From Promethearchaeota archaeon (GTDB lineage Archaea; Asgardarchaeota; Lokiarchaeia; Sigyniarchaeales; SOKP01), in NCBI GenBank assembly GCA_048938895.1, contig JBHLLU010000001.1, forward strand, positions 32,001 through 96,000: DNA of 64,000 nt, in the 5' to 3' direction. The notes under the pieces were generated by a model. That model saw only the letters and a program-made list of their open reading frames with translations, was not told where the DNA came from and searched no databases. The position numbers were made by a program, and so were the translations under genes. Below, one piece after another: positions 1,011 through 24,533 of the stretch (position 1 is its first letter; every line of letters begins with the position of its first letter).

Positions 1011-1137
1011 TGGAAGATATCAATTTAATTATCAAATTAAAGCTATATTCTAGAATAGAAATCACTTTTTCTAATATTTCATATTTCTAAATCAATTCAC
1101 GAAAAATTCAAATAAAGTTAGCCTTTTTATCTGTATT

Positions 1138-2928: not shown

Positions 2929-2935
2929 GTCAATA

Positions 2936-3601
2936 TTAATTGATCACTTTAAATTGAAGTTCTGTGCCATCTTTATCAAAACATTTAATATTATTTAACC
3001 TATATGGAAATCCTATGATAAAGTGAAATCTTAATCCTTTAAATATACTATTTAAATCTTGTAGTGAAGGGTGTAAAGTCCCAGAAGGATGTGAATGAAT
3101 AGTTCCTTGATAGTAGCGATTTGTAGGAAGTCTATTTATATAAAATACTCCTGAACTTCTTGATGTAACTGCACCTGGAGGCAATATAAATTCCGTGAAT
3201 ATATTTCTATCCATTTTTAGGATTCCTAAAAATTCTTTTGGATGATGTGCTCGGCATAAAGCTAAAATCCCTTCTAATAAGTCTCTTTTTATATAAACTA
3301 TGTTTGATTGTAGACTCTCTAAAATAAAAATAATTTCGTCAATAACTTTTATGATAGAATAAGTTTTTTCCAGTTTCCAATTGTTTAAAGATGAAACATC
3401 ATTCTTTAACTTTTTATAAACTTTTCCAGATTGATTAATTATCTTTAATTTTGGTCTTTTAGGATAATTAGAATAATCAATTTCTAAAATAATTCCCGTA
3501 ATTAATTCGATTTTAATATGAGTAATTTGGTTATTTACAATTACTGTATTTGGAAAATGTTCTACAATATTTTGATATTGTTTCTCAATTTCTTCACTCA
3601 T
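2936..3601 (-). CDS. JAB/MPN+ (JAMM) metalloisopeptidase fused to an N-terminal UBC/UEV/RWD-like domain
   Basis: C-terminal half has HPKE...HSHPSGxxxPSxxD (JAMM). N-terminal ~95 aa has NYPKRPK and SSLNNW..SIIKVIDEI, resembling UBC-fold signatures, without a catalytic Cys. Confidence 0.75.
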   Translation of the reverse strand: MSEEIEKQYQNIVEHFPNTVIVNNQITHIKIELITGIILEIDYSNYPKRPKLKIINQSGKVYKKLKNDVSSLNNWKLEKTYSIIKVIDEIIFILESLQSNIVYIKRDLLEGILALCRAHHPKEFLGILKMDRNIFTEFILPPGAVTSRSSGVFYINRLPTNRYYQGTIHSHPSGTLHPSLQDLNSIFKGLRFHFIIGFPYRLNNIKCFDKDGTELQFKVIN

Positions 3602-3678: not shown

Positions 3679-4440
3679 TTAAGTTCTTCTATGAATTATC
3701 GTTCTTATTCTTGTTACATCATCTATTGTTAAATTGCGTTTCATATTTTTTTGCTCAAATCGCATATACCCTTTATGATTAATTCCTTGGCATAGATATT
3801 TTTTTGAGTCATCAAGGATAACTTCTTTTCCAAAAATTTGAGAGTGTTCATTGTATTCTTGAATTAAGGTCTTTATCACCATTAAATTATTTTCTGTAAT
3901 TGGAGAATAATATTTATTTGCATAAAAGCATATTTTTTTAGCAAATTTATCAATAGAAACTGGCTTCTTTAGTACATCTTTTATAGATACTGACTTGGAA
4001 CTTAAGCCTTCTGGCATTTTTTTACTTGAATTATTTAAATTTACACCTATACCGATCAAAATATAATTTACTTGAGAGCTTACTATATAATCAATTAATA
4101 TTCCTGCGAGTTTTTTATTTTCATATAAGATATCATTTGGCCACTTAATTTGTGTTTTTAAATTATACTCATTTTCAATAACAAACCTTATTAATGTTGC
4201 AGTAAAAAAATGAAACAATGCTAATTGCGACTTACTCAAAGATGACGTTGATGCTCCAAGAGTAGCCCAAAAACCCCCTTCTGGAGAATACCAATCGTTC
4301 TGCTTTCTTCCACGACCCTTTGATTGTGTTTTTGCAATTAAAAGAAGAGATGAATAATAATCATATTTAAGGTAATCCATTATACTATCTTGGGTAGAAG
4401 TGGTTTGATTAATGTGGATGATCTTTATTTTTTGAAACAT
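3679..4440 (-). CDS. birA: Biotin--[acetyl-CoA carboxylase] ligase (no N-terminal HTH)
   Basis: QSKGRGR..W.SP, IKWPNDI, KKLAGIL, IGIGVN motifs; adjacent to carboxylase genes. Confidence 0.92.
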   Translation of the reverse strand: MFQKIKIIHINQTTSTQDSIMDYLKYDYYSSLLLIAKTQSKGRGRKQNDWYSPEGGFWATLGASTSSLSKSQLALFHFFTATLIRFVIENEYNLKTQIKWPNDILYENKKLAGILIDYIVSSQVNYILIGIGVNLNNSSKKMPEGLSSKSVSIKDVLKKPVSIDKFAKKICFYANKYYSPITENNLMVIKTLIQEYNEHSQIFGKEVILDDSKKYLCQGINHKGYMRFEQKNMKRNLTIDDVTRIRTIIHRRT

Positions 4441-4836
4441 GGGTCAATGTTAAATCCTGCTTAAAAGAGAAATTAATGCAATAAATATGGCGATTAATAT
4501 AAATTGTTTCTATATTAAATTATCTGATTTTTTATCATACAAATTCCCATCTCAATATGAATGCACAGTATGAATATATATAAAATCTATCAACTTTCAA
4601 AATGAAACTTTTAGTGAAAGCTTGTTGAAATTTGAAAATAACGAAAAGATTTAATGATACCTTAATTATCTTCCCATAAAATATTTGATTATTGAATTAT
4701 TAAAAAATTGAAGAATTTTTAACAAAATATGGTTAAATCTGTAATACTATTAATAGTGTGTATTCAAGTATAAATTTTATAAATATACTTTTGATAAAAA
4801 TAATAACTTGTTTATTTAAATAAATATCAGATTATT

Positions 4837-6408
4837 ATGACATTGAAAGATGAGAAATCTAATGATAACTTTGAAATAGCAGAAAAGTTGCAAGAGCTTA
4901 GAAATGAGTCTAAGTTAGGGGGTGGAAAAGATAGAATTGATCTTCAACATAAAAAGGGCAAATTAACTGCCCGAGAAAGAATTGAATTGTTAATAGATTA
5001 CGGTTCGTTTAATGAAATTGACTCATTTGTTAAACATCAATCTAATAATTTTGATTTAGTAGATAAGAAATTTCTCGGGGATGGAGTAATTACCGGTTAT
5101 GGTACAATAGAAGGAAGAAAAGTTTTTATTTATAGTCAAGATTTTACTGTGTTAGGGGGAACCATAGGGAAAGCTCATGCTCAAAAAATATGTAAAGTTA
5201 TGAAATTTGCTCTAAAAATGGGTTGCCCAATTATCGGTTTAATAGATTCGGGAGGAGCACGTATACAAGAAGGAGTAAATGCTTTAGATGGATTAGCAGA
5301 AATTTTTTATCAAAATGTTAGAGCATCTGGGGTCATTCCTCAGATTTCTGTTATATTAGGCATTTCTGCTGGGGGAGCTGCTTATAGCCCCGCATTAACA
5401 GATTTTATAATTATGGGTGGAAAGAATACTTCTATGTTTATTACAGGACCCGAAGTGATAAACTCGGTAACTGGTGAAAATGTCACTTTTTCAGAATTAG
5501 GAGGTTCTAAAATTCATTCGTCTGTCTCTGGTGTGTGTCATAAGGCTCTAGACACTGAAGAGGAAGCAATAGAATTCACAAAAAAATTATTATCATATTT
5601 ACCCTCAAATAATTTAGATGATGTCCCTCATTGTTTAGAAGAAATTCAAGTAGATGATGCCTATTTATTGGATCGATTGGTGCCAGAGGATGAAAATGAA
5701 CCTTATGATATGAAAAAGGTAATAGATGTAATAGTAGATCAAAATTCTTTTTTAGAACTATATCCTGAGTGGGCAAAGAATATTGTAATTGGGTTTGGGA
5801 GAATAGAGAATCAAACTGTGGGTCTAATAGCAAATCAGCCTATGTTCCTTAGTGGTGCTCTAGACTACAATGCCTCAGATAAGGCTACAAGATTTATTAG
5901 GTTTTGTGATGCATTTAACATACCTCTCCTTACATTAGTAGATGTTCCGGGTTTTTTGCCAGGAGTGAAACAAGAATATTCTGGAATTATTAGGCATGGA
6001 GCTAAAATGCTTTTTGCATATTCGGAAGCAACGGTATTAAAAATCACTGTCATTATACGAAAGGCATATGGTGGAGCTTATATTGTGATGAGTTCAAAAC
6101 AATTAGGATCTGATGTTAATATAGCCTGGAAATCAGCTCAAATTGCTGTAATGGGTGCTGAGGGTGCGTGTAAGATTTTATTTCGTAATCATTTGAATGA
6201 AGTTGAAGATCCCGATATTCTATTAAAAGATTTTAGTGAGAAATATAAGAGAGAATTTTCAAATCCTTTCCGAGTCGCAGAAAGAGGACAAGTGGATAAG
6301 GTTATCTTTCCACATGAAACTCGAAATGAAATTATTAAAAGTCTGAAATTTTTTGAATCAAAACGGAAACTGCCTCCTCGAAGAAAACATGGGATTTCTC
6401 CAGTTTAA
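4837..6408 (+). CDS. Acyl-CoA (acetyl/propionyl-CoA) carboxylase carboxyltransferase subunit
   Basis: GKLTARERI, QDFTVLGG, DSGGARIQEG, VDVPGFLPG, RKAYGGAY; PccB/AccD family; 523 aa. Confidence 0.93.
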   Translation: MTLKDEKSNDNFEIAEKLQELRNESKLGGGKDRIDLQHKKGKLTARERIELLIDYGSFNEIDSFVKHQSNNFDLVDKKFLGDGVITGYGTIEGRKVFIYSQDFTVLGGTIGKAHAQKICKVMKFALKMGCPIIGLIDSGGARIQEGVNALDGLAEIFYQNVRASGVIPQISVILGISAGGAAYSPALTDFIIMGGKNTSMFITGPEVINSVTGENVTFSELGGSKIHSSVSGVCHKALDTEEEAIEFTKKLLSYLPSNNLDDVPHCLEEIQVDDAYLLDRLVPEDENEPYDMKKVIDVIVDQNSFLELYPEWAKNIVIGFGRIENQTVGLIANQPMFLSGALDYNASDKATRFIRFCDAFNIPLLTLVDVPGFLPGVKQEYSGIIRHGAKMLFAYSEATVLKITVIIRKAYGGAYIVMSSKQLGSDVNIAWKSAQIAVMGAEGACKILFRNHLNEVEDPDILLKDFSEKYKREFSNPFRVAERGQVDKVIFPHETRNEIIKSLKFFESKRKLPPRRKHGISPV

Positions 6409-6428
6409 ATTACAAACAGTCGATACAT

Positions 6429-9400
6429 ATGAAAAAGAAAGAAAACATCCAAAAAATTTTCAAAAACAAAATTCCTGTTTGGGGCTATTCACCTAAAGGA
6501 GTAACTGATCCCTCACTTTCAATTCAATTATGTCAAGCCGGGGGAATTGGATTAATTGATTTGGAAGGTCTTAATCAAGATCAATGTCAAAATCAAATTG
6601 ATAAACTTTTTTCATCTTTGACTTCCGATCATTTATGGGGTATTCGAATTTCTAATCACAACCTTTTAAATACCCTCAACTTTCGAGATGTTATCCCGAT
6701 TATCGTTTGTGCTTTCTCCCCAAATAAAGATGATATTCAAAGTATGCAAAAAAATTCAAAATTACTTCTTTCTGAAGTCTCATACTTAGAAGAAGCTTAT
6801 GAAACTGCAGAATGGTCAGATTTGTTTCTTGTAAAGGGTCACGAGGCGGGAGGGATTGTTGGCACTAAGAATAGTTTTATACTTATTCAAGAATTTCAGA
6901 AAGCTGGCCTTTCCTTCATTATTCAAGGTGGTTTTGGAGTTTATAATGTATGTTCAGCTTTTATTGGGGGTGCTATAGGTGTTGTATTAGAAAGCCAGTT
7001 ATATTTACTCCCTGAATGCCCGTTGAGTCCAGATTTTAAGAATTACATTAAAACTATTGATGAAAATGATTTCTATATTGTGCAAGAAACGTCTCGATAT
7101 AATTACCGTTTAATTGGTAAATTAGCTAATAAATCAATCCGTACAATAAAGAGTTTTGAACAAAAAAACTATTCAAACGTAAATAATGATTTCGATACTA
7201 ATTACTTAACTCGTAAAGATGATTTTCATCAAGTAATTAAGAAGTTTATAGATAAATTTCCTCTTTATTCTGATTCAGATCCAAAGCATTCATTCTTACC
7301 AAGCGATCATGGTATATGTTTTGCTAATTTCATTTTGACTAAATTTCAGAATTTAGAGAATTTCCTTACGAATATAATTAATATTATTACTAATCAAATT
7401 AAAAATTGTATAAACAATTGGCCATTTACCAAGAATTCTGAGTTTGCGACAAAGTTAGGCATAAAATATCCAATTATTCAGGGACCAATGGCAAATATTT
7501 CTGATAATTTGTCTTTTGCGAGAAAAATATCAAATAATGGAGCCCTCCCTATTTTAGCGCTAGGAGGACTATTACCGGACGAAACATCTGAGCTGTTATC
7601 AAACTGTAATGCTGAAAAATTATCAGAGAATCCATATGGTTGTGGTATCATAGGTTTAGATGCCGTGAAACCTCGTAGAGATGAACATCTTAGATGTATT
7701 TCAAAATTTGGTCCTGAAATTATCTTAATTGCTGCGGGTACAATTGATCTTGGCGTTCAGGTTAAAAATTCAGGTAATATAGTTTTAATCCATACACCTG
7801 CATTATCTATGTTTAAAGAGGCATTAAAAAGAAATCTTAATTACATGATATTAGAAGGTAATGAGTGTGGGGGGCATGTTGGAACACTTTCCTCTTTCAC
7901 TCTCTGGGAACATGTTTTAGAATATATGGATATAGAACGAAAGAATTTTATACAGAAAGTAAATATAATTTTTGCAGGGGGGATAATTAATGGGGTAAGT
8001 TCAGCAATGCTAGCAGGAATGATATCTAATCATTTAGATATAATCACTCCAGGTATCCAGATGGGAACTGCTTATCTTTTAAGTGAAGAAATTGTTACAA
8101 CTAAGGCATTATCCCCTGTTTATCAAGAATTACTTTTAAATAATACATTTACAAATGTTATTGGTGTTACTGTAAATACTCGAGCTAGAGTAATCCCTTC
8201 GGAATTTTCGCTTTATACTATTAAAAATGAGTATTTACGTAAATCAAATGGAATTTCTTTATCCCAAAGAAAGAAATTGTATGAAGAAGACAATTTAGGT
8301 GCTCTTAGAATTGCTTCTAGAGCTGAGATTTGGAACGAGAATCATGAAAAAGTGAGTGGGACGTCTCAATTTATACCGATCTCAACTGAAGAACAATTAA
8401 CCAAAGGTGTTTTTATGACAGGTGATTCAATTTCCCTGCAAAAAACAATTAGAAGTATCCCTCAAATTCATTCTGATATAATTGAAGAAGGTTTGAAATT
8501 TATCAGAAAAAACTCAAATTATATTTTAAAAGAGACGTTAGGTCGTGTGCCTATGAATAAAGAAAAATACTTAAAAAAAATACAATCTATCGGAAATAAA
8601 ATAGCTATTGTAGGAATGGGTGGTTTGTTTCCAGATGCCGAAAACATTCCACAATTTTGGGACAACATCATTAGCAAAAAATATTCAATTACGACAGTCC
8701 CAAAAGATAGATGGGATTCTGATATATTTTATGATAGTGATCATTCCATTCCTGATAAAACATATACAAAGATCGGTGGATTTGTGAAAAAATTTGAATT
8801 TAAATCTATTAAGTATAGAATTCCTCCTAAAATGGCGGATAGGATGGATTTAGTTCAGAAGTGGGCAATAATTACTGCAGAAGAAGCTTTAATTGATGCT
8901 GGTTATCCTATTGATGGGAAAAAACGATTATCTATAGCTACTATTGTTGGTAACTCTTCAGGAGGAGATACGCAGCGTATTAGCAACAAACGGATATTAT
9001 TTAACGAAATTAAATATAGATTAAATGAAGCAAGTTCCCAAATGATTTTAAAACCTGAAGAAAAAGAAAATCTTCTTAAATTCCTCGAAAGTAAAATTAT
9101 TAATCATATTCCTGTGATTAATGAGGATACGATGCCTGGTGAATTGGCAAACATAATTGCAGGAAGAGTAGCAAACGTGTTTAATTTAACTGGTAAGAGC
9201 ATGACTACTGATGCTGCATGTGCTTCAAGTTTAGCTGCGATTGACACAGCAGTAAACGGATTATTAGTCAAGGATTATGATACAGTTCTTGTAGGAGGGG
9301 TTGATAGTTCGATGGACCCTCAAACATATATTAAATTCTGTAAGATAGGTGCCTTGTCTGAAGATGGTACTTATCCTTTTGATTCTCGTGCAAATGGATT

Positions 9401-12400
9401 TGTCATGGGCGAGGGTGCAGGATTTATAGTTTTAAAGCGACTTGAAGATGCTTTACATGATAAGAATAAAATCTATGCGATTATTAGTGGATTTGGAGGG
9501 TCTTCAGATGGAAAAGGAAAAGGTATAACTGCACCTAATCCTGAGGGACAAAGATTAGCTATTGAGAGAACCCTGGAAAATACTAATTTAAGCCCTTCAG
9601 ACATTCAATACCTTGAGTGCCATGGAACATCAACTATTGTTGGTGATGCCACCGAATTAAGTGTATTAAGCCAAATTTTTTCTGATCGAAATGTAAATCA
9701 AAAACTTGCATTAGGCTCAATAAAAAGTCAAATAGGGCATCTTAAAAGTGCAGCAGGTATAGCTAGTATTATTAAAACGGTATTAGCGTTATATAATAAA
9801 ATCATACCTCCATCCATTAACGTTTCAAATTTAAATCCCACAATAAATTGGGAAAATGCTCCTTATTATGTGAATACGGAACCAACTAAATGGTCAACAC
9901 CTGAAAATGGAATAAGAAGAGCAGGAGTTTCCTCATTTGGATTTGGAGGTACAAATTATCATGTAATCTTAGAAGAATTTTTACCACATCTATACACAAA
10001 TGTCTTAACTGAAAGAGCTGAGGATTTTCCGTTATGTGAAGAATTAATGTATAAACAATTTGAATCTCATCAAGACAATTCTATTATTCCTTCTTCCACT
10101 GATCTATGTTTTTTATTTAGTGGTCAAGGAAGCCAATATGTTGGGATGACTCGAGAGTTATATGAAAAATATCAAGTGGTTAAAAATACACTTAATAAAG
10201 CAAATGATATATGTAAAGAGTTTGGTAGTTTTAATTTATTAAAAATCATTTTTGGGGATAATAATTTATCTCAAGAAGAAAACTCAGATAAGTTAAAACA
10301 GACAGAATTTACTCAACCAGCTATCTATTCAGTTGAGATGGCTTTAGTTAATCTATTTAAATCAAAAGGGATTACCCCAGGGATTGTTGGAGGGCATAGT
10401 TTAGGAGAATTCGCAGCTTTAGTCACAGCAGGAGTATTAAGTTTTGAGGATGGATTGAAAACAGTAATTAGAAGAGGAATTTCAATGTCTGAATTACCTC
10501 CTGGTGTTCAATGCACCATGGCAGCGATATTTACATCACCAGATATAGTTGAGAAAACCCTTAATGAGTTATCTAATGAAGATGTCTCCATTTCAAATTA
10601 TAACTCTACTTCTCAGACGGTTATATCTGGTGAAATTTCTGCAGTCGAATCTATTATGGATGCATTTTCAAAGAAAGAAATTCGAGCAATAAGATTAAAT
10701 GTTTCGAATGCATTTCATTCTAAGTATGTAGCCCACGCTGAGGAAAAATTAAAAGACTTTTTAAAAACAATTGAATTTAAATCCCCTCAAATTCCAGTCT
10801 TTAGTAACGTGACGGGAAAGGTATATCCTAATGATCCTGATAAGATAAAATCAATCTTACTTAAACAGATAACCTCTCCCGTTAGATGGGTTGACGAAGT
10901 ATTAAATATGTATCAAAAAGGAGGAAGAAAATTCTTAGAATTAGGACCAAAAAAAGCTCTTTTCTTTTTTACCAAAGATATCTTGAAAAAGTATAAAGAT
11001 ATTGAGGTTAATTTTACTCTTTCACCAAAATCTTCAGAGAAAGATCATATTCAAAAAGTTTTTGATAGGTTCTCAGCTTTAGAATCAATCAGTCAAAAAG
11101 AAAGAGTTGAAATTGAGTATCCTTCCATTAAAGATAAGAAAATAAAAATATCGAGACAAGCAGAATCATCCATTATAAAGAGAGATACTTTAAGATCGAA
11201 TGAATATTTATCTAAAATTGTGCAACTTCCATCATTTAAGGATTTTCTAGAAGAACAAAAGGTTTCTCTATCTTCTGCTTTGATGGAAGGATTTTATAAA
11301 TATCTTGAGAAGAATAGTACTTCTATTGATAATCAATTTAATAAGGGTGATATAGATTCTACTCCCATTGTAATCACGGGTGTAGGTATTGGGCTTCCTG
11401 GCAAAAATCGTAAAGTTTTTGATGATAAAAATGTAGATGATATTTTAGATGGAATAAACTTAATCGATTTGGTAAGTACAGAATCTCAAAATCAATTGCT
11501 CCAAAAAAAAATCATACGTTTGGAAAAATCTCCGAATGGTAATGCAAAATTTGTTTCTGTAGATGACATTTCTAATGTAATTCACCTAGCAGGACAACTT
11601 GGAGAATTCAATCCCAATGAAGATTACCATCTAAATCCTAAGTTGTTGAATGCCTTAGATATCACATTTCAAATGGCAATCTGTGCAGGATACGATGCAC
11701 TTAAGGATTCAGGTATTCCATTAGTCCGCAGTACCATTAAAACTTCAACAGGAAAGACTTTGAGTGGAGATTGGATATTACCAGAATCATTACAGGATGA
11801 CACTGGCATAATTTTTGCATCCGCTTTCCCAGGATACGATAATTTTGTTGAAGAATTCCGGAAATATTCTAATTTTGATTGTGATCAGAAAAAGTCTATT
11901 GAAGAAAATGATAAAAATTTTAATCGTTCATTTTTGTTCAGAGTGTTATCTATGGGGCATTCTCAGTTTGCTCAATTAATAAAAGCAAAAGGTCCAAATA
12001 CCTCTACGAATGCTGCATGTGCCTCTACTCCTCAAGCTATAGGTATTGCTGAAGATTGGATACGCAATGGAAGATGTAAACGAGTCATTGTGATTACAGC
12101 AGACAATGTAACAAGTCGTAACCTTTTTCAATGGATAGGTGCAGGTTTTATTGCTAGCGGAGCCGCTACAACTAAAAATCGATGGGAAGATGCTGTACTT
12201 CCATTTGGAGAAGGAAGGAATGGAATTATTTTAGGTGCTGGTGCTAGTGCATTCGTAATCGAACAGCAGATGGAAGCTGAAGCTCGAGGTGTTAAACCAA
12301 TTGTTGAAATATTAGGTTCATATTTCGCAAATAGTGCCTTTCATGGTACCCGATTAGATAAAGATCATATTTCTCAAAAACTCGAAGAATTTATACAAAA

Positions 12401-15400
12401 GATTGAGAGAACATATGATATTACTAGAGAAGAATTGGCAAAGGAAGGAATGTTTGTGAGTCATGAAACTTACTCTCCAGCCCGAGGAGGAAGTGCTGAA
12501 TCGGAATTGATTGCTTTAAGAAACACGTTTGGAAATTATGCTCAAGATATGGTTATTATCAACACGAAAGGATATACTGGTCATGCAATGGGGGCTGGAA
12601 TTGAAGAAGCTGTCGCTATCAAGTCACTTGAAAAAGGGAAAATCCCACCAATAGCAAATTTGAATAGAATTGACCCAAATTATTCAAATTTCAACTTTTC
12701 AGCTGGAATAAATGAAAGGAAGAAATATGCTTTACGTTTTGCTGCAGGATTTGGATCTCAATTAGCAATTGTTCTATTTCGTCTAAAGTCATTCAATAAC
12801 CGTTTTGCAAATCCAAATTACCAAAAATGGCTTCAAAGCATAGGTGGAGACGAAAAATTAATATTTATCGATGGAAGACTTCTAAAAATGAAAACTGAAC
12901 GTGTTCCCCTCAAAAAAGCTACTATCTTTTCTACAGAAACAACTGAAAGTTCCCAGAAAGTAATTCCTTCTGGAACAAGTGAAATTCTGAATGAGATCAA
13001 ATACATAATTAGTTTAAAAACTGGGTATGATCCAGCTGATATTGATGATACATTCGATTTAGAGGAAGATCTAGGAATTGATACTGTAAAACAGGCAGAA
13101 ATATTTGGTGAAATTAAAAAAAAATGGGATATTGAAGTGGATGATTCATTTAATTTAGCAGATTATCGCACAATTAATGAAATTGTCCAAATGTTGAATG
13201 ATTTCTTAAGGGTAGATCTTATAACTGAAAATGATTTTTCTTGTCTCAATGAATTTTCGCTTGAAAAAGAATTAATAAATATAATTTCTGAAAAGACAGG
13301 ATATGATATTGAAGACATCGACATTGAATTTGATTTAGAGGAGGATCTTGGGATTGATACAGTAAAACAAGCTGAGATATTTGGGGCGCTTCGGAGTAAT
13401 TTGAACATCCCAGAGGACACTGAAATCAATCTATTAGGATTAGGAAGTATTAAAAATATAATTCAAAAAATACAAGTATTAATGAGTGACAAGATTATTG
13501 ATGGAAAATTAACTCAAAATATCTATACTCCTATTGAAGTACCTGATGACATAAAACAAATAAATAATTTAGTAAAAAAAATTATTGCAGAAAAAACAGG
13601 GTATGACCTTAATGACATTGATGACTTATATGACTTAGAGGAAGACTTGGGAATTGATACAGTGAAACAGGCCGAAATCTTCGGAGAATTACGTAATCAT
13701 TACAAACTAGAAGATTCCATTGAGATTAACATATCTGAAATTCGCACTCCAAATGATATTACTCAATTTATAATGCAATATTTCAATGAGAAATCCAAAA
13801 TCGTTGAAAAAGACTTAGGAACGACTGGAAGCGTAGATAAAGTTCAAGAAGAGATAAAAGAGGAAAAACAAGATAGTATTTATGTTTCACAAGTTGTCCC
13901 CTCTCAAATTTTTAAATTAGAAACCCCAGAAATAGATTTGAAATATAAAAGTACGGATACTTTACTCCTTAATATTAATTTAGGGTTATCAAATTACGGA
14001 AAATTGATAAAAAGTTTTGAAAACTATGGCTTAAAAATTCAAGTATTAAATGTTAATAGTGATGAAAATTTTTCTAGTGATCTTAACAATAAAAAACATG
14101 ATTCTCTATTCAATACTGATTTTAAAATACTTCTATTGGTCACTCCAGATAATAATCAATACACTATAGATGATAGTTTAAGCATCTTTGATAATCTATT
14201 CCTTATTTTTCAATCATTAAATTTATCAATAATCGAAAGAATATTAGTGCTTTCTCCAGAAACTACTTTTGGTTGGGAAGAAGGAGCCAATCCTCTTTCT
14301 GCTAGTATAAGTGCCTTTATAAAAACAATAAATCGCGAATTTAAAATTCCGATTAAACTAATTTCTTCAAAGAATCTAAGTAAAATTTCTCAGGAGTTTC
14401 TTACTTGGGATACTGTTGAAGAAGTTTCCTATGTAGATAATTTTCGTTATACATTATTAAGACAGAAAATTGAGGTACTCCCAGAACAGAATCCTTTATC
14501 AATAACGGAAGAAGATGTATTATTGGTCACTGGAGGTGCACAAGGAATCACTTTTGCATGCATCGATGAATTAACAAACTATACTAAACCACAGTTAATT
14601 CTTATGGGACTAGCTTCTTACGAAAATTCATTGAACGAATATTTAAATTATACTCCAGAAATGTTGAATGAGAAAAAGCTAGAATTGGTTAACAAGTTGA
14701 AATCTGAACATAAAAGAGTAACTCCTGTCATGATAAATAAAGAATGGAAAAATTTTCTCGACAAACTAGATACTCTAAGAAATATTGAAAAATTGAGAAG
14801 TAAAGGTCTTAAAGTGCAATATTTTGCGGGGGATATTACCGATGATGAATTTGTAAGCACTACACTCCAAAAAAGTTATAAACAAAATAAAAATCCAATA
14901 ACAATTGTTATCCATGGAGCTGGAATTGAAGAATCAAAAAATTTCTTAAATAAAAAATTAAATGTGGCTCATAAAGTTGTTGATGTCAAAGTTGGAGGAT
15001 TTTCAAATATTCTGAAGCATATAAAGCTTCAAGATGTTAAATATTTCATAGCCTTCTGTTCAGTTGCAGGTCGTTATGGAAATCAAGGACAAATAGATTA
15101 TGCTTTTGCAAATTCTTATTTATCTCGGTTAGCTTGGAAATTCAATCAAGATAAAATTCCTTTTCTTATTTTTGATTGGACTGCTTGGGCTGACATTGGA
15201 ATGGCAACTCAGGGTTCGACTCTTCAAATTCTTACTCAAGCAGGTGTTAGGCCTGTCCCATCCAAAACTGGTGTTAAAATATTTACAAAGTTAGTACTAA
15301 ATAATTTTACTGGTGAATACGTCATTGCTGGAGAATTAGGAATATTTGAGGAGAAGCTTCGTATAGAGGAGGTTATTAGCAAGTTAGAATATCCTATGTT

Positions 15401-16973
15401 AGAGAGAATTAATTATCAGTCAGCTCGTATTATTGGATACAACACAATTGATTCTAAATTCGATGTATATCTTCTAGATCACCAAATTCAACGGAAACCA
15501 GTATTTCCAGGAGTAATGGTTTTAGAAACATTTGCAGAATTTTATCATCGAATGTTTGATAAACCATTAACCTCAATCTCTAATGTAAATTTTCTTACGC
15601 CCTTGAAAATCCCAATAGATAAAACTATTAATATAGAACTAATTTTTAATAAATCTAATAACGAAATTTCTTTCCAATCAAAGACTTTTCCCACTATCTT
15701 GAAAGGAAAACCTCTTGTTAAAGAACGTTTCAATGCTAAGTTCAATGAACCTACAAATGAGCTGAAGTGGAAAAAAGAATCTATTTCGGAGCCGTTAATA
15801 TCACTACTCGAGAAAACCGAAATTTATGAGCTTTTCTTTCATGGACCAAAATTTCAGGTTTTAAAAGAAGTTATTCAATTAGAAAAAGAAAAAATTGTTA
15901 CGATGGTTGACTTACCTACAGCCCCTCTTATTAATAATAAGGAGGATCAATTTCAAATTAAACCTTTGATACTTGAAAGTGTTTTTCAAACCGCTGCACT
16001 TTTTGATTTTATAATTAATGGTTATCTTTCACTTCCCTCTAAAATTTCAATCTTGAAAATATTATCAAATCAAAAGCCTAAATATATAGTCGCTAAATTT
16101 TTAAAGAGGGATGATGAGAAATCTTATTACAATTCAGTAGTGCTAAGTGAAGATCAAGAAATAATAGTAATAATGGAAAATTTAGAAATTATCCATGCAC
16201 CAATGGCAAAAAATATCTCTCCTAATCTATCTAATTATTTAGGTACATTAAAGGAGTATTATCACCTTAAAAATAACATAAATAAGCATGAGATTCATGT
16301 CCTTCCTATCACAAAGATACATAATTTATATCAAACCAATCCTAAATTTTTGGATTATTACCTTACTGAACAAGAAATAGATAACTCCAAGCGTTTTAGA
16401 AATTTAAAAAGAAAAATCGAATATTTTTCTGGAATCATCGCAGCAAAAGAATTGTATTTTAGAAATTCGTACAAGCGTGAGTCTTATCACGATATTGAAA
16501 TTCAAAAAGATGATAAAGGTAAACCATTTTATTTTTCAAATAAATTGAATCAAATTATTCCGCTTAATCTTTCAATTAGTCATTCAAACGAATTTTCAGT
16601 TGCAATTAATGGTAAAAATTTGGTTGGTATTGATCTAGAGATAATTGAATTCCGATCATCTTCATTTTACAAAGAGGTATTTACTGAATTAGAGAGAAAT
16701 GCTATTTCAGAAGATAATCAATTAGGAACAATTTACTGGACAGCTAAAGAAGCCTTCTCAAAAGCAATAGGGGAGGGTTTTAATATTAATTTTAAAGATT
16801 TTGAATTGAAATACGAGGAAAAGCACAAAAAATTCACAATATCATTCAAAAATGAAAAATCTGAATTCAATGATAATCTTAGATCTTTACAATTGGGAGT
16901 TGATTATACCAAGAAGTATGTTTTATCATATTGCGAGTTGAAACCATTTAAAGAAATTCCAACAATCCAGTGA
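6429..16973 (+). CDS. Giant type I iterative PKS/FAS (Pfa-like): 2x FMN TIM-barrel ER-like, KS, AT, second KS, 3x ACP, KR, DH, PPTase
   Basis: ER/NMO-like motifs KGHEAGG, IIQGPMA, EGNECGGH, AGGI. KS1 DAACASS/ECHGTST/IGHLKSAAG (~8600-9980). AT FSGQG/GHSLG/AFHS (~10100-11030). KS2 NAACAST/SHET/TGHAMG (~11360-12790). Three DLGIDTVKQAE ACP repeats (~12980-13790). KR TGGAQGI/GQIDYAFAN. DH LLDHQIQRKPVFPG/FHGPKFQ. PPTase SISHS/VGIDLE/WTAKEAFSKA. Confidence 0.93.
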   Translation: MKKKENIQKIFKNKIPVWGYSPKGVTDPSLSIQLCQAGGIGLIDLEGLNQDQCQNQIDKLFSSLTSDHLWGIRISNHNLLNTLNFRDVIPIIVCAFSPNKDDIQSMQKNSKLLLSEVSYLEEAYETAEWSDLFLVKGHEAGGIVGTKNSFILIQEFQKAGLSFIIQGGFGVYNVCSAFIGGAIGVVLESQLYLLPECPLSPDFKNYIKTIDENDFYIVQETSRYNYRLIGKLANKSIRTIKSFEQKNYSNVNNDFDTNYLTRKDDFHQVIKKFIDKFPLYSDSDPKHSFLPSDHGICFANFILTKFQNLENFLTNIINIITNQIKNCINNWPFTKNSEFATKLGIKYPIIQGPMANISDNLSFARKISNNGALPILALGGLLPDETSELLSNCNAEKLSENPYGCGIIGLDAVKPRRDEHLRCISKFGPEIILIAAGTIDLGVQVKNSGNIVLIHTPALSMFKEALKRNLNYMILEGNECGGHVGTLSSFTLWEHVLEYMDIERKNFIQKVNIIFAGGIINGVSSAMLAGMISNHLDIITPGIQMGTAYLLSEEIVTTKALSPVYQELLLNNTFTNVIGVTVNTRARVIPSEFSLYTIKNEYLRKSNGISLSQRKKLYEEDNLGALRIASRAEIWNENHEKVSGTSQFIPISTEEQLTKGVFMTGDSISLQKTIRSIPQIHSDIIEEGLKFIRKNSNYILKETLGRVPMNKEKYLKKIQSIGNKIAIVGMGGLFPDAENIPQFWDNIISKKYSITTVPKDRWDSDIFYDSDHSIPDKTYTKIGGFVKKFEFKSIKYRIPPKMADRMDLVQKWAIITAEEALIDAGYPIDGKKRLSIATIVGNSSGGDTQRISNKRILFNEIKYRLNEASSQMILKPEEKENLLKFLESKIINHIPVINEDTMPGELANIIAGRVANVFNLTGKSMTTDAACASSLAAIDTAVNGLLVKDYDTVLVGGVDSSMDPQTYIKFCKIGALSEDGTYPFDSRANGFVMGEGAGFIVLKRLEDALHDKNKIYAIISGFGGSSDGKGKGITAPNPEGQRLAIERTLENTNLSPSDIQYLECHGTSTIVGDATELSVLSQIFSDRNVNQKLALGSIKSQIGHLKSAAGIASIIKTVLALYNKIIPPSINVSNLNPTINWENAPYYVNTEPTKWSTPENGIRRAGVSSFGFGGTNYHVILEEFLPHLYTNVLTERAEDFPLCEELMYKQFESHQDNSIIPSSTDLCFLFSGQGSQYVGMTRELYEKYQVVKNTLNKANDICKEFGSFNLLKIIFGDNNLSQEENSDKLKQTEFTQPAIYSVEMALVNLFKSKGITPGIVGGHSLGEFAALVTAGVLSFEDGLKTVIRRGISMSELPPGVQCTMAAIFTSPDIVEKTLNELSNEDVSISNYNSTSQTVISGEISAVESIMDAFSKKEIRAIRLNVSNAFHSKYVAHAEEKLKDFLKTIEFKSPQIPVFSNVTGKVYPNDPDKIKSILLKQITSPVRWVDEVLNMYQKGGRKFLELGPKKALFFFTKDILKKYKDIEVNFTLSPKSSEKDHIQKVFDRFSALESISQKERVEIEYPSIKDKKIKISRQAESSIIKRDTLRSNEYLSKIVQLPSFKDFLEEQKVSLSSALMEGFYKYLEKNSTSIDNQFNKGDIDSTPIVITGVGIGLPGKNRKVFDDKNVDDILDGINLIDLVSTESQNQLLQKKIIRLEKSPNGNAKFVSVDDISNVIHLAGQLGEFNPNEDYHLNPKLLNALDITFQMAICAGYDALKDSGIPLVRSTIKTSTGKTLSGDWILPESLQDDTGIIFASAFPGYDNFVEEFRKYSNFDCDQKKSIEENDKNFNRSFLFRVLSMGHSQFAQLIKAKGPNTSTNAACASTPQAIGIAEDWIRNGRCKRVIVITADNVTSRNLFQWIGAGFIASGAATTKNRWEDAVLPFGEGRNGIILGAGASAFVIEQQMEAEARGVKPIVEILGSYFANSAFHGTRLDKDHISQKLEEFIQKIERTYDITREELAKEGMFVSHETYSPARGGSAESELIALRNTFGNYAQDMVIINTKGYTGHAMGAGIEEAVAIKSLEKGKIPPIANLNRIDPNYSNFNFSAGINERKKYALRFAAGFGSQLAIVLFRLKSFNNRFANPNYQKWLQSIGGDEKLIFIDGRLLKMKTERVPLKKATIFSTETTESSQKVIPSGTSEILNEIKYIISLKTGYDPADIDDTFDLEEDLGIDTVKQAEIFGEIKKKWDIEVDDSFNLADYRTINEIVQMLNDFLRVDLITENDFSCLNEFSLEKELINIISEKTGYDIEDIDIEFDLEEDLGIDTVKQAEIFGALRSNLNIPEDTEINLLGLGSIKNIIQKIQVLMSDKIIDGKLTQNIYTPIEVPDDIKQINNLVKKIIAEKTGYDLNDIDDLYDLEEDLGIDTVKQAEIFGELRNHYKLEDSIEINISEIRTPNDITQFIMQYFNEKSKIVEKDLGTTGSVDKVQEEIKEEKQDSIYVSQVVPSQIFKLETPEIDLKYKSTDTLLLNINLGLSNYGKLIKSFENYGLKIQVLNVNSDENFSSDLNNKKHDSLFNTDFKILLLVTPDNNQYTIDDSLSIFDNLFLIFQSLNLSIIERILVLSPETTFGWEEGANPLSASISAFIKTINREFKIPIKLISSKNLSKISQEFLTWDTVEEVSYVDNFRYTLLRQKIEVLPEQNPLSITEEDVLLVTGGAQGITFACIDELTNYTKPQLILMGLASYENSLNEYLNYTPEMLNEKKLELVNKLKSEHKRVTPVMINKEWKNFLDKLDTLRNIEKLRSKGLKVQYFAGDITDDEFVSTTLQKSYKQNKNPITIVIHGAGIEESKNFLNKKLNVAHKVVDVKVGGFSNILKHIKLQDVKYFIAFCSVAGRYGNQGQIDYAFANSYLSRLAWKFNQDKIPFLIFDWTAWADIGMATQGSTLQILTQAGVRPVPSKTGVKIFTKLVLNNFTGEYVIAGELGIFEEKLRIEEVISKLEYPMLERINYQSARIIGYNTIDSKFDVYLLDHQIQRKPVFPGVMVLETFAEFYHRMFDKPLTSISNVNFLTPLKIPIDKTINIELIFNKSNNEISFQSKTFPTILKGKPLVKERFNAKFNEPTNELKWKKESISEPLISLLEKTEIYELFFHGPKFQVLKEVIQLEKEKIVTMVDLPTAPLINNKEDQFQIKPLILESVFQTAALFDFIINGYLSLPSKISILKILSNQKPKYIVAKFLKRDDEKSYYNSVVLSEDQEIIVIMENLEIIHAPMAKNISPNLSNYLGTLKEYYHLKNNINKHEIHVLPITKIHNLYQTNPKFLDYYLTEQEIDNSKRFRNLKRKIEYFSGIIAAKELYFRNSYKRESYHDIEIQKDDKGKPFYFSNKLNQIIPLNLSISHSNEFSVAINGKNLVGIDLEIIEFRSSSFYKEVFTELERNAISEDNQLGTIYWTAKEAFSKAIGEGFNINFKDFELKYEEKHKKFTISFKNEKSEFNDNLRSLQLGVDYTKKYVLSYCELKPFKEIPTIQ
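12980..13790 (+). repeat. Three tandem ACP-domain repeats inside the PKS
   Basis: Repeated I(S/A)xKTGYD...DLEEDLGIDTVKQAEIFG units spaced about 276 and 300 nt apart, diverged at synonymous sites. Confidence 0.9.
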
Positions 16974-17761
16974 TAGTAATGAGAAAAGAAGTGATTGAAG
17001 TAGAAGTTCGATCTGAAATTCTGCAAGGAGTACTCTATTTACCTGATGAAAAAGATCCAAAAATTAGTGAATGTAATCCATTTCCAATCGTGATTCGTGT
17101 TAATGGAATGCCTGGTAAATCTCCCGAAGAAGATGAAACGAGATTTGCCCATCTTTTTGTTAACAATGAATTTGCTTATTTCACTTATGATCACCAAGGT
17201 GTGAGGAAAAGTACCGGTATTTTTACTTATTATGACGCTCAAGCAAATATCGAAAATGTAATAAATCAGTTAGTGCATCATCCTGAGATGAATCCTATTA
17301 AAATTGGCCTGTTAGGAGAAAGTTTTGGGGGTGCAATGGCTTTTTGCCATACTGTAAGAGATAAACGTGTTAAATGTCTTGCTATACGTTCTCCTGTTTT
17401 TGATACAGAAATTATTCCAAAGAATCCTCTTTTTAAATTTTTCATCAAAGCATTAACACGTAATAAAAAAATGCGATTTCCCGAAGGAGATCTCAAAAAA
17501 AAGTATGCTGAACAAACAAGACAATATAATCCCAATAGATTAGCGGATAAATTAGCAAAACCTTTCTATCTGATTGCAGGAAATAAGGATGTTTTATTTC
17601 CAGAATCTGGTTTTCATCAACTCTTTAATAAAGTCAAGTCTGAAAATAAAAAAATTGAAATAATTGATGGAGCTGATCATAACTTTACAGATAAAAATCA
17701 TTTTCACCTAATGCGTAAAAATATTATTGATTTCTTTAGATTTCATCTTATAGTAAATTAA
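16970..17761 (+). CDS. Alpha/beta-hydrolase, probable thioesterase/release enzyme for the PKS
   Basis: Nucleophile elbow GESFGG, acid GNKD, His in GADHNF. Start overlaps or abuts the PKS stop (GTGA; alternative ATG at 16979). Confidence 0.8.
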   Translation: MIVMRKEVIEVEVRSEILQGVLYLPDEKDPKISECNPFPIVIRVNGMPGKSPEEDETRFAHLFVNNEFAYFTYDHQGVRKSTGIFTYYDAQANIENVINQLVHHPEMNPIKIGLLGESFGGAMAFCHTVRDKRVKCLAIRSPVFDTEIIPKNPLFKFFIKALTRNKKMRFPEGDLKKKYAEQTRQYNPNRLADKLAKPFYLIAGNKDVLFPESGFHQLFNKVKSENKKIEIIDGADHNFTDKNHFHLMRKNIIDFFRFHLIVN

Positions 17762-17773
17762 ATTGAAATTAGG

Positions 17774-18271
17774 ATGCCGAAAAAAGTTAAATTTCGAGGA
17801 AGGAATTATATAGTTACTCCATTAGATAATGGGAAAATAAAAGTAGATGACCATATTTATGCCCCGGTAGTCATTCAAGAAACAGAGAATTTATTTCGAG
17901 TAACATTTGAAGATTGTCAGTTTAATTTGGAATTTATAAACGGGGTTTTATATTTAGAGGGTGAAGAAATCGATATTGAAATTAAACCATATTTAAAATC
18001 AGTAGATAATAACTATGAAAGCCCACAAATCACGGACGTAATTATAAAAGCTCCTATTCCAGGGAAAATATTAGAAATCCACGTCGAAGAGGAGGAATAT
18101 ATCGAAAAGGAACAGTTATTATTAATTTTAGAAGCAATGAAAATGAAAAATCGAATATTGTCTCCAAGAAAAGGGAAGATAATCCAAATATTAGTGAATG
18201 AAGGGGATATCGTTGGACAAGATCAAAAGTTAATTAAAATTGAAAGTAGAAATAATGTAAAGGGTATATAA
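17774..18271 (+). CDS. accB: Biotin carboxyl carrier protein
   Basis: IKAPIPG and EAMKM biotinylation motif. Confidence 0.9.
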   Translation: MPKKVKFRGRNYIVTPLDNGKIKVDDHIYAPVVIQETENLFRVTFEDCQFNLEFINGVLYLEGEEIDIEIKPYLKSVDNNYESPQITDVIIKAPIPGKILEIHVEEEEYIEKEQLLLILEAMKMKNRILSPRKGKIIQILVNEGDIVGQDQKLIKIESRNNVKGI

Positions 18272-18292
18272 TCATTGATTTATTATTTTTTT

Positions 18293-19774
18293 TTAACGTA
18301 TTTGCTCTATTTTAGCGACATCTCGCCATTTATTTGATTTTTTCTTTTGTGTTTCTTCAGGTTGAGTTGATAATTTAAATTGCTTAAATAATTGAAAAAC
18401 TGCTGCCAATTTTTTTCTTTCTAAATCTTTTAAATTATTAGCAATGTTTGTTTTATTTAAGAAATCAGTTGATAAATCTCCCTTTCTAAATTCACGAGAA
18501 TCTACTATTACTTTATGTAAATCTAAATTCGTTTTTATTCCTGAAATAACTAATTCTTTTAGGGTATGTTTAGAGAGATTGATTGCCCTTTTTCGATTTC
18601 TACCCCACACCACCAATTTCCCTATCAATGAGTCAAAATCATGAGGAACTACATAATTAGGGTACAAATAACTATCAAAACGCACTTTTGGTCCCCCTGG
18701 TATGATTAAATTTGTAATTTTTCCATGTTGGGGAAAGAATGAATTATATGGATCTTCAGCATTTATCCTATATTCTATAGCATGTCCATGTAATGAGATT
18801 TCCTCTTGAATATAATTTAATGGTTTATTTGAGGCAATGCTTATTTGTTCCTCAACCAAATCTATTCCTGTTACCATTTCTGTAACAACATGTTCTACTT
18901 GGATTCTTGGATTTACTTCATTAAAATAGATATTACCCTCCTTCCATAGAAATTCTGCTGTTCCCACATTTGAATAATTTAATTCACGAGCTAACTGACA
19001 AGTTTTATCTCCTAATTTAGAGATTTCATCCCTTGTTAAAAATGAGGGTGCTTCCTCAATAAGTTTTTGATGAGATCGTTGGATAGTACATTCCCGATCT
19101 CCTAAATATATAATATTACCAAAATTATCTCCAATAAATTGAATTTCTACATGACGAGGTGCCATAATAGACTTTTCAATAAAAACTTCATTGCGACCAA
19201 AAAACTTTGATCCCATTTCTTGACAACCTTGGAGTGCAATGCCCATTTCTTCTTCAGATTCAACAATTTCCATTCCTCGACCACCACCTCCAAAGGCTGC
19301 TTTTATTATTACAGGATATCCGATCTTATCTGCTATTAATTTAGCTTCCTCTAAACTACGAATAAATCCATCTGAACCAGGTAAAACGGGTAAACCGACA
19401 CTTTTTGCTAGGATTTTTGCTTTAATTTTATTACCTAAAAATTCAATGGTATTTGGGCTTGGACCGATAAAAATCTTACCAAGATTAATAATTTGTTTTG
19501 CAAATTCTGCATTTTCGCTCAAAAAACCATATCCTGGATGGATTGCATCTGCATCACACCGTTTAATTATTTCAACTAGTTTTGAGATGTTAAGATATGT
19601 ACCCTGAATTGATTCATCTCCTAAATTATATGCCTCATCTGCCATTTTTACGTGAAGAGAGTTTTTGTCTGACTCAGAAAAAATTGCTATTGATTTAATC
19701 TCTTTTGATCGACATGCTCTGATAACTCTAACTGCAATCTCTCCACGATTAGCAATTAAGACAGATTTGATCAT
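18293..19774 (-). CDS. accC: Biotin carboxylase (ATP-grasp)
   Basis: LIANRGEIA, HPGYGFLSENA, KAAFGGGGRG, RECTIQR, EVNPRIQVEH, RINAED; start placed at ATG 19774. Confidence 0.93.
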   Translation of the reverse strand: MIKSVLIANRGEIAVRVIRACRSKEIKSIAIFSESDKNSLHVKMADEAYNLGDESIQGTYLNISKLVEIIKRCDADAIHPGYGFLSENAEFAKQIINLGKIFIGPSPNTIEFLGNKIKAKILAKSVGLPVLPGSDGFIRSLEEAKLIADKIGYPVIIKAAFGGGGRGMEIVESEEEMGIALQGCQEMGSKFFGRNEVFIEKSIMAPRHVEIQFIGDNFGNIIYLGDRECTIQRSHQKLIEEAPSFLTRDEISKLGDKTCQLARELNYSNVGTAEFLWKEGNIYFNEVNPRIQVEHVVTEMVTGIDLVEEQISIASNKPLNYIQEEISLHGHAIEYRINAEDPYNSFFPQHGKITNLIIPGGPKVRFDSYLYPNYVVPHDFDSLIGKLVVWGRNRKRAINLSKHTLKELVISGIKTNLDLHKVIVDSREFRKGDLSTDFLNKTNIANNLKDLERKKLAAVFQLFKQFKLSTQPEETQKKKSNKWRDVAKIEQIR

Positions 19775-20026
19775 ACAACACAATAATGAAAGCTAATTAT
19801 TATAGCTATGCTATTAATTAAATAAACAAGTATTTTATTAAAAAATATCATTTTTTTTAATATTTGAGGAAACGATTTTAACGATTTTAAATTTTAAGTT
19901 ATTTTCTATGGGAGGATCTTTAACATCAGAAGAAATATTATCTGAAATCAGAATCCTTAAAGGTCCCTCATTCTGGTAAAAAGGAATTAATTACTCATCT
20001 GATTAAATATATAATTTAGAACAGTT

Positions 20027-21223: not shown

Positions 21224-21244
21224 ATGGCAAGGGATCTTTTTATT

Positions 21245-23140: not shown

Positions 23141-23190
23141 ATATAGTATTAAAACATTTGACTATTTAAATTTCGCGAGCTTTTTTTAAA

Positions 23191-23233
23191 ATTCGAACTT
23201 CATTCGAAGTTTTTTTTCTAAAACTAAATATAG
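23191..23233 (+). promoter_or_regulatory. Operator+promoter copy A: AACTTC-N4-GAAGTT palindrome, 8 nt, then AAAACTAAATATAG (BRE/TATA-like)
   Basis: ATTCGAACTTCATTCGAAGTT-ttttttct-AAAACTAAATATAG; perfect inverted repeat; same spacing in three other copies. Confidence 0.75.
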
Positions 23234-23284
23234 AATTTTTGATATGTTATAATTATAAAAAAACCAAAAAAAAGGTATGAAAAA

Positions 23285-23365: not shown

Positions 23366-23418
23366 ATATTTTTTTTTAATTATTATTTTTTAATAAACTC
23401 ATAAAGAGGTAAGAGAAA

Positions 23419-24521: not shown

Positions 24522-24533
24522 ATCATTTATATG

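Follow-up and report, generated by a model that had tools for sequence, protein, structure and literature searches.

A predicted self-sufficient module for carrier-protein-dependent acyl-chain synthesis encoded in Asgard archaea

The closest described relatives of the locus reported here are the 'secondary lipid synthases' of Type R and perhaps Type S, a likeness drawn from published descriptions and not from a direct comparison with the Koribacter protein. In the sections of the survey by Shulse & Allen (2011, PLoS One 6:e20146; PMC3098273) that define these types, they are reported in bacteria only and their products are uncharacterised. Type R, from Candidatus (Ca.) Koribacter, Ca. Solibacter, Elusimicrobium and Roseiflexus, has the order ketosynthase (KS)–malonyl-CoA acyltransferase–chain-length factor (CLF)–three to six acyl carrier proteins (ACPs)–ketoreductase (KR), with the phosphopantetheinyl transferase (PPTase) as a separate downstream gene and, in the Koribacter cluster, a gene for acetyl-CoA carboxylase (ACC). 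Type S, from Desulfobacterium autotrophicum HRM2, is considered there a possible core fatty acid synthase (FAS) since fabA and fabZ are missing, and the same account names tandem carriers as a hallmark of the Pfa-type synthases that make lipids at high throughput. The general view is that archaea do not build fatty-acid-like chains by such a route, and a 2024 preprint describes them as lacking FAS I, FAS II and, nearly always, ACP. For Asgard archaea, a passage in Chen et al. 2020 (PMC7472256) mentions a polyketide synthase (PKS) with KS domains like those of polyunsaturated fatty acid (PUFA) synthesis in one Heimdall metagenome-assembled genome (MAG). Here we analyse a window of 64,000 nucleotides, positions 32001-96000 of the longest contig (JBHLLU010000001.1; 185,936 bp) in the bin of a Promethearchaeota archaeon (GCA_048938895.1), in which six contiguous genes probably form a module able, on its own, to synthesise acyl chains de novo in an ACP-dependent manner. 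Its likeliest product would be a saturated straight-chain, long-chain fatty acyl group. In the literature searched, which left subscription journals and supplements outside its scope, that passage was the only mention and no paper characterised the present Asgard synthase, although a description elsewhere is possible; public Asgard MAGs already contain many members of the family, annotated with generic names.

Open reading frame (ORF) calling combined with family scans recovered, at window 3679-19783, all six contiguous genes claimed in a first-pass annotation of this DNA: those for a biotin-protein ligase (BirA), a carboxyltransferase (CT), a 3514-residue synthase, an alpha/beta-hydrolase, a biotin carboxyl carrier protein (BCCP) and a biotin carboxylase (BC) (Table 1). 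The end of the cluster is placed at 19783 by the longest ORF of BC, which begins there with TTG, rather than at 19774, which is residue 4 and the point where the family matches start. All parts of a biotin-dependent acyl-CoA carboxylase are present with Pfam matches above cutoff, namely BC, BCCP with its biotinyl-lysine motif, a Carboxyl_trans-type CT, and the ligase. The GTG start of the hydrolase gene overlaps the synthase stop by 4 nt, indicating translational coupling. The nearest PDB entries of the hydrolase are esterases and monoacylglycerol-lipase-like proteins; it is a candidate chain-releasing thioesterase or acyltransferase, and searches of the synthase itself against Pfam, NCBIfam and PDB sequences found no thioesterase domain.

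The synthase has the domain order ER'-ER-KS1-AT-KS2-ACP3-KR-DH-PPTase, in which ER stands for enoyl reductase, AT for acyltransferase and DH for dehydratase. To judge conservation, 22 homologues from Asgard archaea and bacteria were aligned, and all catalytic residues checked are invariant among them. The N-terminal ER' domain carries a GHEAGG motif without the following His, and several of its residues are invariant. The adjacent ER matches FabK and other enoyl-ACP reductases in the PDB with E values down to 1.8e-18 and contains an invariant E-G-x-E-x-GGH motif. KS1 has an invariant Cys/His/His triad, its nearest PDB entries being KS-AT didomains of PKSs. In the AT, the motifs GHSLG and AFHS on which the earlier malonyl-type reading was based are both present and, like the active-site Arg, invariant; against TIGR00128 (FabD) the domain scores 245.7 bits, slightly under the cutoff of 260.9. 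The invariant residues C1864, H2012 and H2052 of KS2 align residue for residue with the FabF triad. Since this triad is intact, KS2 is by motif a complete condensing enzyme and not a CLF, a KS-like domain defined by the loss of the active-site Cys. In the PPTase, D3402, E3404, W3437, K3440, E3441 and K3445 are invariant; C-terminal PPTase motifs were detected in 97 of 197 unique family proteins, a set with many truncated members. The fused PPTase, the two N-terminal NMO-type domains, the second complete KS, the three carriers (not one or two) and the Thr at their attachment site go beyond what the first-pass annotation had recorded.

Table 1. Cluster genes, synthase domains and other features of the window (positions in the window; residues are those of the synthase)
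Feature	Position	Strand	Basis or remark
Biotin-protein ligase (BirA catalytic type, without repressor domain)	3679..4440	-	BPL_LplA_LipB 67 bits; TIGR00121 132 bits, cutoff 83
Carboxyltransferase (PccB/12S type, 523 aa)	4837..6408	+	Pfam Carboxyl_trans 596.6 bits
Iterative type I synthase (predicted), 3514 aa	6429..16973	+	Pfam, NCBIfam and PDB sequence searches
ER', NMO-type TIM-barrel	6429..7418	+	Pfam NMO 36.1 bits, cutoff 28, residues 1-335 alone
FabK-like FMN enoyl reductase, residues ~338-693	7440..8507	+	TIGR03151 FabK; PDB enoyl-ACP reductases
KS1, residues 723-1184	8595..9980	+	Pfam ketoacyl-synt, Ketoacyl-synt_C
Malonyl-type AT, residues 1226-1528	10104..11012	+	Pfam Acyl_transf_1 152.7 bits
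KS2, residues ~1700-2118	11526..12782	+	Alignment to FabF
Three tandem carrier domains	12996..13772	+	PF00550, 3 matches above cutoff
KR, residues 2698-2922	14520..15194	+	Pfam KR 93 bits; Rossmann motif, Ser/Tyr/Asn invariant
PKS-type double-hotdog DH, residues 3004-3254	15438..16190	+	PKS_DH_N, PS-DH; H3018, P3027 invariant
Fused Sfp-type PPTase, residues ~3290-3502	16296..16934	+	ACPS 70 bits and AASDHPPT_N on tail alone
Alpha/beta-hydrolase	16970..17761	+	Pfam Hydrolase_4; GESFG, Asp, GADH triad
BCCP	17774..18271	+	Pfam Biotin_lipoyl; EAMKM biotinyl-lysine motif
Biotin carboxylase (ATP-grasp)	18293..19783	-	Biotin_carb_N, CPSase_L_D2, Biotin_carb_C; NF006406 601 bits, cutoff 739 missed
Winged-helix and TPR protein, 631 aa	21245-23140
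Ras-family small GTPase gene	23967-24521		<10 kb downstream of cluster
Winged-helix and TPR protein, 844 aa	24534-27068
Ras-family small GTPase gene	29150-29713		<10 kb downstream of cluster
Ras-family small GTPase gene	29867-30418		<10 kb downstream of cluster
B12-binding radical SAM protein, 745 aa	31141-33378
Winged-helix and TPR protein, 681 aa	33482-35527
Central-metabolism block	36072-45928		Includes 2-oxoacid:ferredoxin oxidoreductase, ADP-forming CoA ligase-like protein, fumarate reductase/succinate dehydrogenase flavoprotein and Fe-S/CCG subunit

In the stretch KS1-AT-KS2-ACP×3-KR, the window synthase follows the order described for Type R, and it likewise comes with a PPTase, although here as a C-terminal fusion. 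Bacterial relatives come from phyla that also contain described Type R members, Acidobacteriota and Chloroflexota, and match query residues ~725-3460. Set against the published description of Type R, the window synthase differs by an N-terminally fused ER behind a second NMO-like domain and by a full Cys-His-His triad in the domain at the 'CLF' position, and its cluster by the three-subunit carboxylase, the biotin ligase, the hydrolase and the archaeal host. Homologues from Desulfobacteraceae, Desulfomonilaceae and Syntrophaceae, which are candidates for Type S, match from residue ~5-7, with the ER fused and Thr carriers; the Desulfobacterota homologues differ from the window synthase in having only 30-38% identity to it and up to 8 carriers. 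The best NCBIfam match is TIGR02813 (omega_3_PfaA), at 882.5 bits under the cutoff of 1010.1, and the tandem carriers, PKS-type KS-AT, NMO-type (PfaD-like) ER and dedicated PPTase all recall the PfaA-E system. Unlike PfaA-E, the window synthase is a single polypeptide, has no FabA-like (PfaC) DH/isomerase domains, and carries Thr where PfaE modifies serine, as the relevant part of a review states (PMC4882568). Neither the canonical order of animal type I FAS (KS-MAT-DH-ER-KR-ACP-TE) nor the fungal alpha/beta arrangement, with an ER of MDR or fungal type, was found, and the nearest solved KS-AT didomains are PKS modules. Archaeal-type three-subunit acetyl/propionyl-CoA carboxylase, part of a carbon-fixation pathway, consists of BC, BCCP and a PccB-like CT; the subunit set is the same here, but it is co-inherited with the synthase. 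The system is thus set apart from known kinds as an Asgard-wide single polypeptide with fused ER and PPTase, a complete KS2 and Thr carriers, co-inherited with carboxylase, ligase and hydrolase. Asgard chromosomes carry a complete, motif-intact ACP-dependent synthase together with its extender supply and both cofactor-activating enzymes.

These genes enable us to propose a putative route of synthesis. Initially, BirA would biotinylate BCCP, and BC, BCCP and CT together would convert acetyl-CoA to malonyl-CoA. The fused PPTase would load phosphopantetheine on the three tandem carriers, apparently on Thr, and the AT would then load malonyl units. Both KS domains, being complete by motif, would condense iteratively and may serve different chain-length windows or priming. 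Afterwards, KR, DH and the FabK-type ER would fully reduce each beta-keto group, and finally the translationally coupled hydrolase would release or transfer the finished chain. The self-sufficient pathway claimed earlier, from supply and activation through elongation and reduction to release, is borne out to the extent that all its catalytic motifs are present and conserved. We infer iterative operation, malonyl specificity and full reduction, as well as the Thr-linked pantetheine, the role of the hydrolase as releaser, the length of the chain and what becomes of it in the cell. The tandem carriers suggest a lipid made at high flux, not a metabolite needed in traces. A PUFA product is unlikely, since Pfam found no FabA domain in the synthase and none was found in the genome. 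With six genes, de novo fatty acid synthesis by Asgard archaea, and its purpose, become directly testable.

The carriers themselves are unusual. After the conserved Asp, the attachment residue is Thr in all three (T2219, T2311 and T2411), which HMMER aligns with the phosphopantetheine Ser of PigH, ACP and AcpM. Although the fold-family matches exceed the cutoff, the conserved Ser of PF00550 carriers is therefore missing. Motif counting over the 197 unique family proteins, Asgard and bacterial, gave 590 Thr and 9 Ser among 599 Ser/Thr sites, plus five matches with other residues that are probably spurious; in two closed Heimdallarchaeum genomes the carriers read Ser-Thr-Ser. That Thr functions as the phosphopantetheine attachment site is suggested by the rare interchange of Ser and Thr at exactly this site, by the invariance of the motif around it and by the intactness of the PPTase. 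No report of Thr-linked phosphopantetheine was found in the literature searched. The family-wide change from Ser to Thr is a separate biochemical puzzle, extending to hundreds of bacterial species.

A whole-length protein search returned 2245 matches among 8000 scored candidates, and the 60 best non-self proteins bear archaeal labels only, where named. Among these 60, identity is 65-74% for Promethearchaeota, 'Hodarchaeota' and Lokiarchaeum GC14_75, 44-52% for Harpocratesius and Heimdallarchaeaceae and ~41-45% for further Heimdall and Kariarchaeaceae entries, and one protein is labelled Bathyarchaeia. Bacterial matches start at 30-38% identity, with Desulfobacterota. Scanning one genome per species by pattern revealed at least 597 stretches encoding a relative, of which the best 78 loci were analysed: 20 Asgard-labelled, three from Thermoplasmatota MAGs and 55 bacterial, the last from Acidobacteriota, Chloroflexota, Actinomycetota, Desulfobacterota, Calditrichota, Myxococcota and other phyla. 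Within this set, most bacterial proteins match from residue ~725 onward and so have no fused ER; those of Desulfobacterota and of one Thermoplasmatota MAG match from the N-terminus. Using the window's neighbour proteins as queries against the 78 loci, we found BirA, CT, hydrolase, BCCP and BC all around the synthase in 10 of the 20 Asgard-labelled loci, including those in the closed genomes of Harpocratesius and Heimdallarchaeum endolithica, so that the six-gene layout recurs in other Asgard genomes; one of the ten loci, L023, has the partners rearranged. Contig ends truncate nine of the other ten, where only those partners that fit on the contig are seen; at the remaining locus, L015 in the closed genome of Ca. 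Heimdallarchaeum aukensis PM71, only the BC match is missing. At L015 the synthase match (10001-25234) spans ~15.2 kb as against ~10.5 kb in the window, with a longest open frame of 2729 aa, and the gene may be interrupted or rearranged. In most of the Asgard loci long enough to show it, CT is the gene immediately upstream of the synthase, a place that it keeps in L023 and L024 despite their rearrangement, and the hydrolase is syntenic as well. The JAB-domain gene upstream of the cluster and the MFS transporter gene downstream are not kept beside it in relatives and are left out of its parts list. In 22 of the 55 bacterial loci, a BC-like gene (32-40% identical) lies directly downstream of the synthase, which echoes the ACC gene in the published account of the Koribacter cluster, and CT is found in three. 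This recurrence suggests that the link between synthase and carboxylase predates the Asgard clan or extends beyond it.

Within the host genus, the synthase occurs in 8 of 53 other species. CT is found in all 8 of these and in one further species, G197, but in none of the other 44; BirA is found in the same 9 species; and a hydrolase orthologue accompanies the synthase in each of its 8 species and is also present in one other, G188. In the host genome each of these genes is single-copy. These are given as counts without statistics, related genomes not being independent. The co-distribution indicates that the module is gained or lost as a unit and that the carboxylase is dedicated to the synthase, in agreement with the malonyl-CoA supply of its own that had been claimed for the cluster; an all-in-one module of this kind is a natural portable fatty-acid cassette. 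In G197, CT and BirA lie near a contig end (C52:2700-5417), and neither synthase nor hydrolase was matched. The G188 genome consists of one 2.3-Mb contig and is 81% complete; it carries a hydrolase orthologue (76% identical, C1:413106-413885) and gave no match to synthase, CT or BirA. Possibly these partial sets are remnants or assembly gaps.

Turning to the rest of the host genome, which is 98.7% complete, PF00550 found no PP-binding domain beyond the three in the synthase (contig positions 44996-45196, 45269-45460 and 45569-45772). FabA/FabZ-type dehydratases (PF07977) gave 0 matches there while 9 of 14 control genomes were positive, an absence that parallels the missing fabA and fabZ in the account of Type S. 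Since PlsX was not found in the genome either, the cluster is the host's only ACP-dependent acyl-chain machinery. PlsC-type acyltransferases have 3 matches and PlsY-type 2, neither family being present in four archaeal control genomes; searches for glycerol-1-phosphate (G1P) dehydrogenase and GpsA gave only weak family-level matches. The PlsY/PlsC-type sites are at C104:21413-23318 and C53:28781-29953: two adjacent PlsY-family genes lie in ORFs of ~405 aa, about twice the domain length, and one ORF of 558 aa carries two PlsC-type domains. We do not count these genes as support, because PlsY is common in synthase-negative congeners and PlsX is absent.

Several observations weigh against the reading proposed here. 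The NCBIfam equivalog cutoffs for PfaA, FabD, AccC and MmdA were all missed, so functions are assigned at the level of domain families only. To our knowledge, Thr at a carrier attachment site is unprecedented, which leaves carrier activation as a prediction. PlsX is absent, no route from the product to glycerolipids is seen, GGGPS for isoprenoid ether lipids is kept, and PlsY, carried by 7 of the 8 congeners with the synthase and by 27 of the 45 without it, is not tied to the cluster. Furthermore, the cluster is accessory in the genus and in the family (9 of 134 genomes); membranes there therefore cannot depend on it, which weakens a core membrane-lipid role, and programmed skipping of ER or DH could conceivably yield hydroxy or enoyl products. 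The same machinery might make a specialised 'secondary lipid'. Its chain could, for instance, be very long, hydroxylated or in part unsaturated, and could end up in a glycolipid, alkyl ether, wax, hydrocarbon or signalling molecule. The patchy distribution in the genus and the lack of co-distribution with PlsY would fit such a product, as would a releasing enzyme that is a generic esterase/lipase-like hydrolase in place of a classic thioesterase domain. The two KS domains and the extra NMO-like domain also hint at programmed steps, and Type R/S, the nearest described class, is itself filed under 'secondary lipid synthases' without known products in the survey sections cited above. However, full reduction is favoured by the presence of KR, DH and ER together, all with conserved active sites, an isomerising dehydratase of the FabA type is missing, and no tailoring gene for a glycosyltransferase, reductase or type III PKS is kept beside the Asgard clusters, as judged with this window's neighbours as the only queries. 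On balance, we regard a specialised lipid as a serious possibility but distinctly less probable than a saturated fatty acyl chain.

In a third reading, the synthase would supply a short or medium chain for cofactors, octanoyl for lipoate or a pimeloyl-type chain for biotin, in organisms without type II FAS. The host genome has neither FAS II dehydratases nor a free ACP, and a biotin ligase does lie in the cluster. Nevertheless, three tandem carriers and a dedicated carboxylase imply a flux beyond cofactor need, 44 of the 53 congeners live without the whole module, biotin ligase included, and neither lipoyl synthase nor biotin synthase is among the window ORFs examined. We thus consider cofactor supply highly improbable.

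The host is a Loki-type Asgard archaeon, as the archaeal assignment in the first-pass annotation had held, given its expanded Ras-family GTPases, actin and Snf7 and its kinship to named Asgard genomes. The bin comprises 4.65 Mb in 174 contigs at 31% GC, with an estimated contamination of 7.5%. Family scans gave 96 Ras-family matches in the genome, 6 of them on the cluster contig, as well as 5 actin-family matches (best E 4.9e-125) and a match to Snf7 (ESCRT-III). Ca. Harpocratesius repetitus FW102 belongs to the same GTDB order, and is placed in Promethearchaeales by NCBI. On the contig, where the cluster occupies 36-52 kb, Ras GTPase genes flank it on both sides. Its GC content is 31.4%, compared with 30.9% for random 16-kb pieces of the host genome, and its tetranucleotide correlation with the genome is 0.989, where random pieces average 0.993 (sd 0.003) and 8% of 300 lie below the cluster. 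The composition claimed to resemble the archaeal surroundings is therefore within the range of the genome. The cluster is also covered, at 95-100% likeness, by contigs that come from three further samples of one study and from a second study and that bridge the junctions BirA|CT, CT|synthase, synthase|hydrolase, hydrolase|BCCP and BC|MFS; all four runs consist of assembled contigs, not reads, and the possible source belongs to the same study as three of them. With the Ras flanks, an unbroken composition, junctions bridged by independent contigs and the same layout in closed Asgard genomes, a chimeric fragment or bacterial contamination was rejected. Although CT has methylmalonyl-CoA decarboxylase alpha (MmdA; 712 bits, under cutoff) as its best NCBIfam match, the bin is not free of contamination and the nearest non-Asgard relatives are bacterial, it is hardly credible that the carboxylase serves CO2 fixation or a decarboxylase ion pump beside the synthase by chance, or that the region is contaminant, when all 8 congeners with the synthase but just 1 of the 45 without it have CT and BirA, synteny is kept from Loki to Heimdall lineages, three closed Asgard chromosomes carry the same cluster, and the locus lies on the longest contig of the bin.

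The distribution of the family was sampled in 400 genomes of the phylum by a KS2-carrier match at E <= 1e-40, which was found in 61. In the host's own family (f1), 9 of 134 genomes carry it. The count is 3 of 14 in the family with Harpocratesius (f3), 26 of 31 in that with both closed Heimdallarchaeum genomes (f13), 10 of 12 in that with the Heimdall MAG HM7_B34 (f18), 9 of 12 in f15, 2 of 3 in f14 and the single genome of f12 (1/1), with 0 in all other sampled families. The synthase is thus near-universal in three Heimdall-type families (f13, f15 and f18) and sporadic in the Loki family. We built a FastTree phylogeny of the KS-AT-KS2 core from 80 rows, 10 of 90 having been dropped for less than 85% core coverage, and a quick IQ-TREE phylogeny (LG+G4) from 46 of the 80, hand-picked to span the clades. 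Both trees are unrooted, with heterogeneous composition and one long-branched Thermoplasmatota row. In both, all Asgard-type sequences fall on one side of a branch with support 99, and the Loki group, including the window, is sister to the Heimdallarchaeaceae group. A single origin of the Asgard clan is therefore supported by these unrooted trees. Acidobacteriota and Chloroflexota relatives form the neighbouring bacterial clan, and a Desulfobacteraceae clade sits on a long separate branch. Two rows inside the Asgard clan are labelled 'Bathyarchaeia' and 'Methanobacteriota', and the 'Hodarchaeota'-labelled L004 sits in the Loki group beside the window, at odds with its label; labelling problems are suspected in all three. 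A bolder scenario, which we offer tentatively and think rather unlikely to hold in full, is that the synthase clan with its carboxylase, ligase and hydrolase dates to the common ancestor of Lokiarchaeia and Heimdallarchaeia, that it provides these archaea, in an ACP-dependent way, with straight acyl chains made de novo that enter cellular lipids, and that the whole family, Asgard and bacterial, uses a hitherto undescribed Thr-O-phosphopantetheine linkage installed by the fused PPTase. If this were true, the lineage hosting eukaryogenesis could already have made 'bacterial-type' fatty chains itself.

A few further observations concern the surroundings of the cluster. Scans of the window for tRNAs and Rfam families gave no matches. 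Contigs of runs X2, X3 and X4 connect window positions 2997 and 22267 through 33 letters of other sequence, and the flanking stretch at window 21843-22499 is covered two to four times as deeply as the cluster. The joins may reflect, if weakly, a co-occurring relative without the ~19-kb cluster-bearing block. In run X5, cover is missing over parts of a 20-kb stretch, which we leave uninterpreted. The first of the winged-helix and TPR genes (21245-23140) is syntenic with those at two relatives' loci, L004 and L005. L004, filed as Ca. Hodarchaeota archaeon DZ1B.338, holds the closest relative of the synthase (74% identity) and shares the neighbouring M3 peptidase and winged-helix and TPR genes at 75-79% identity. 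There, the peptidase gene and the winged-helix and TPR gene are direct neighbours, with the cluster located beyond the peptidase gene.

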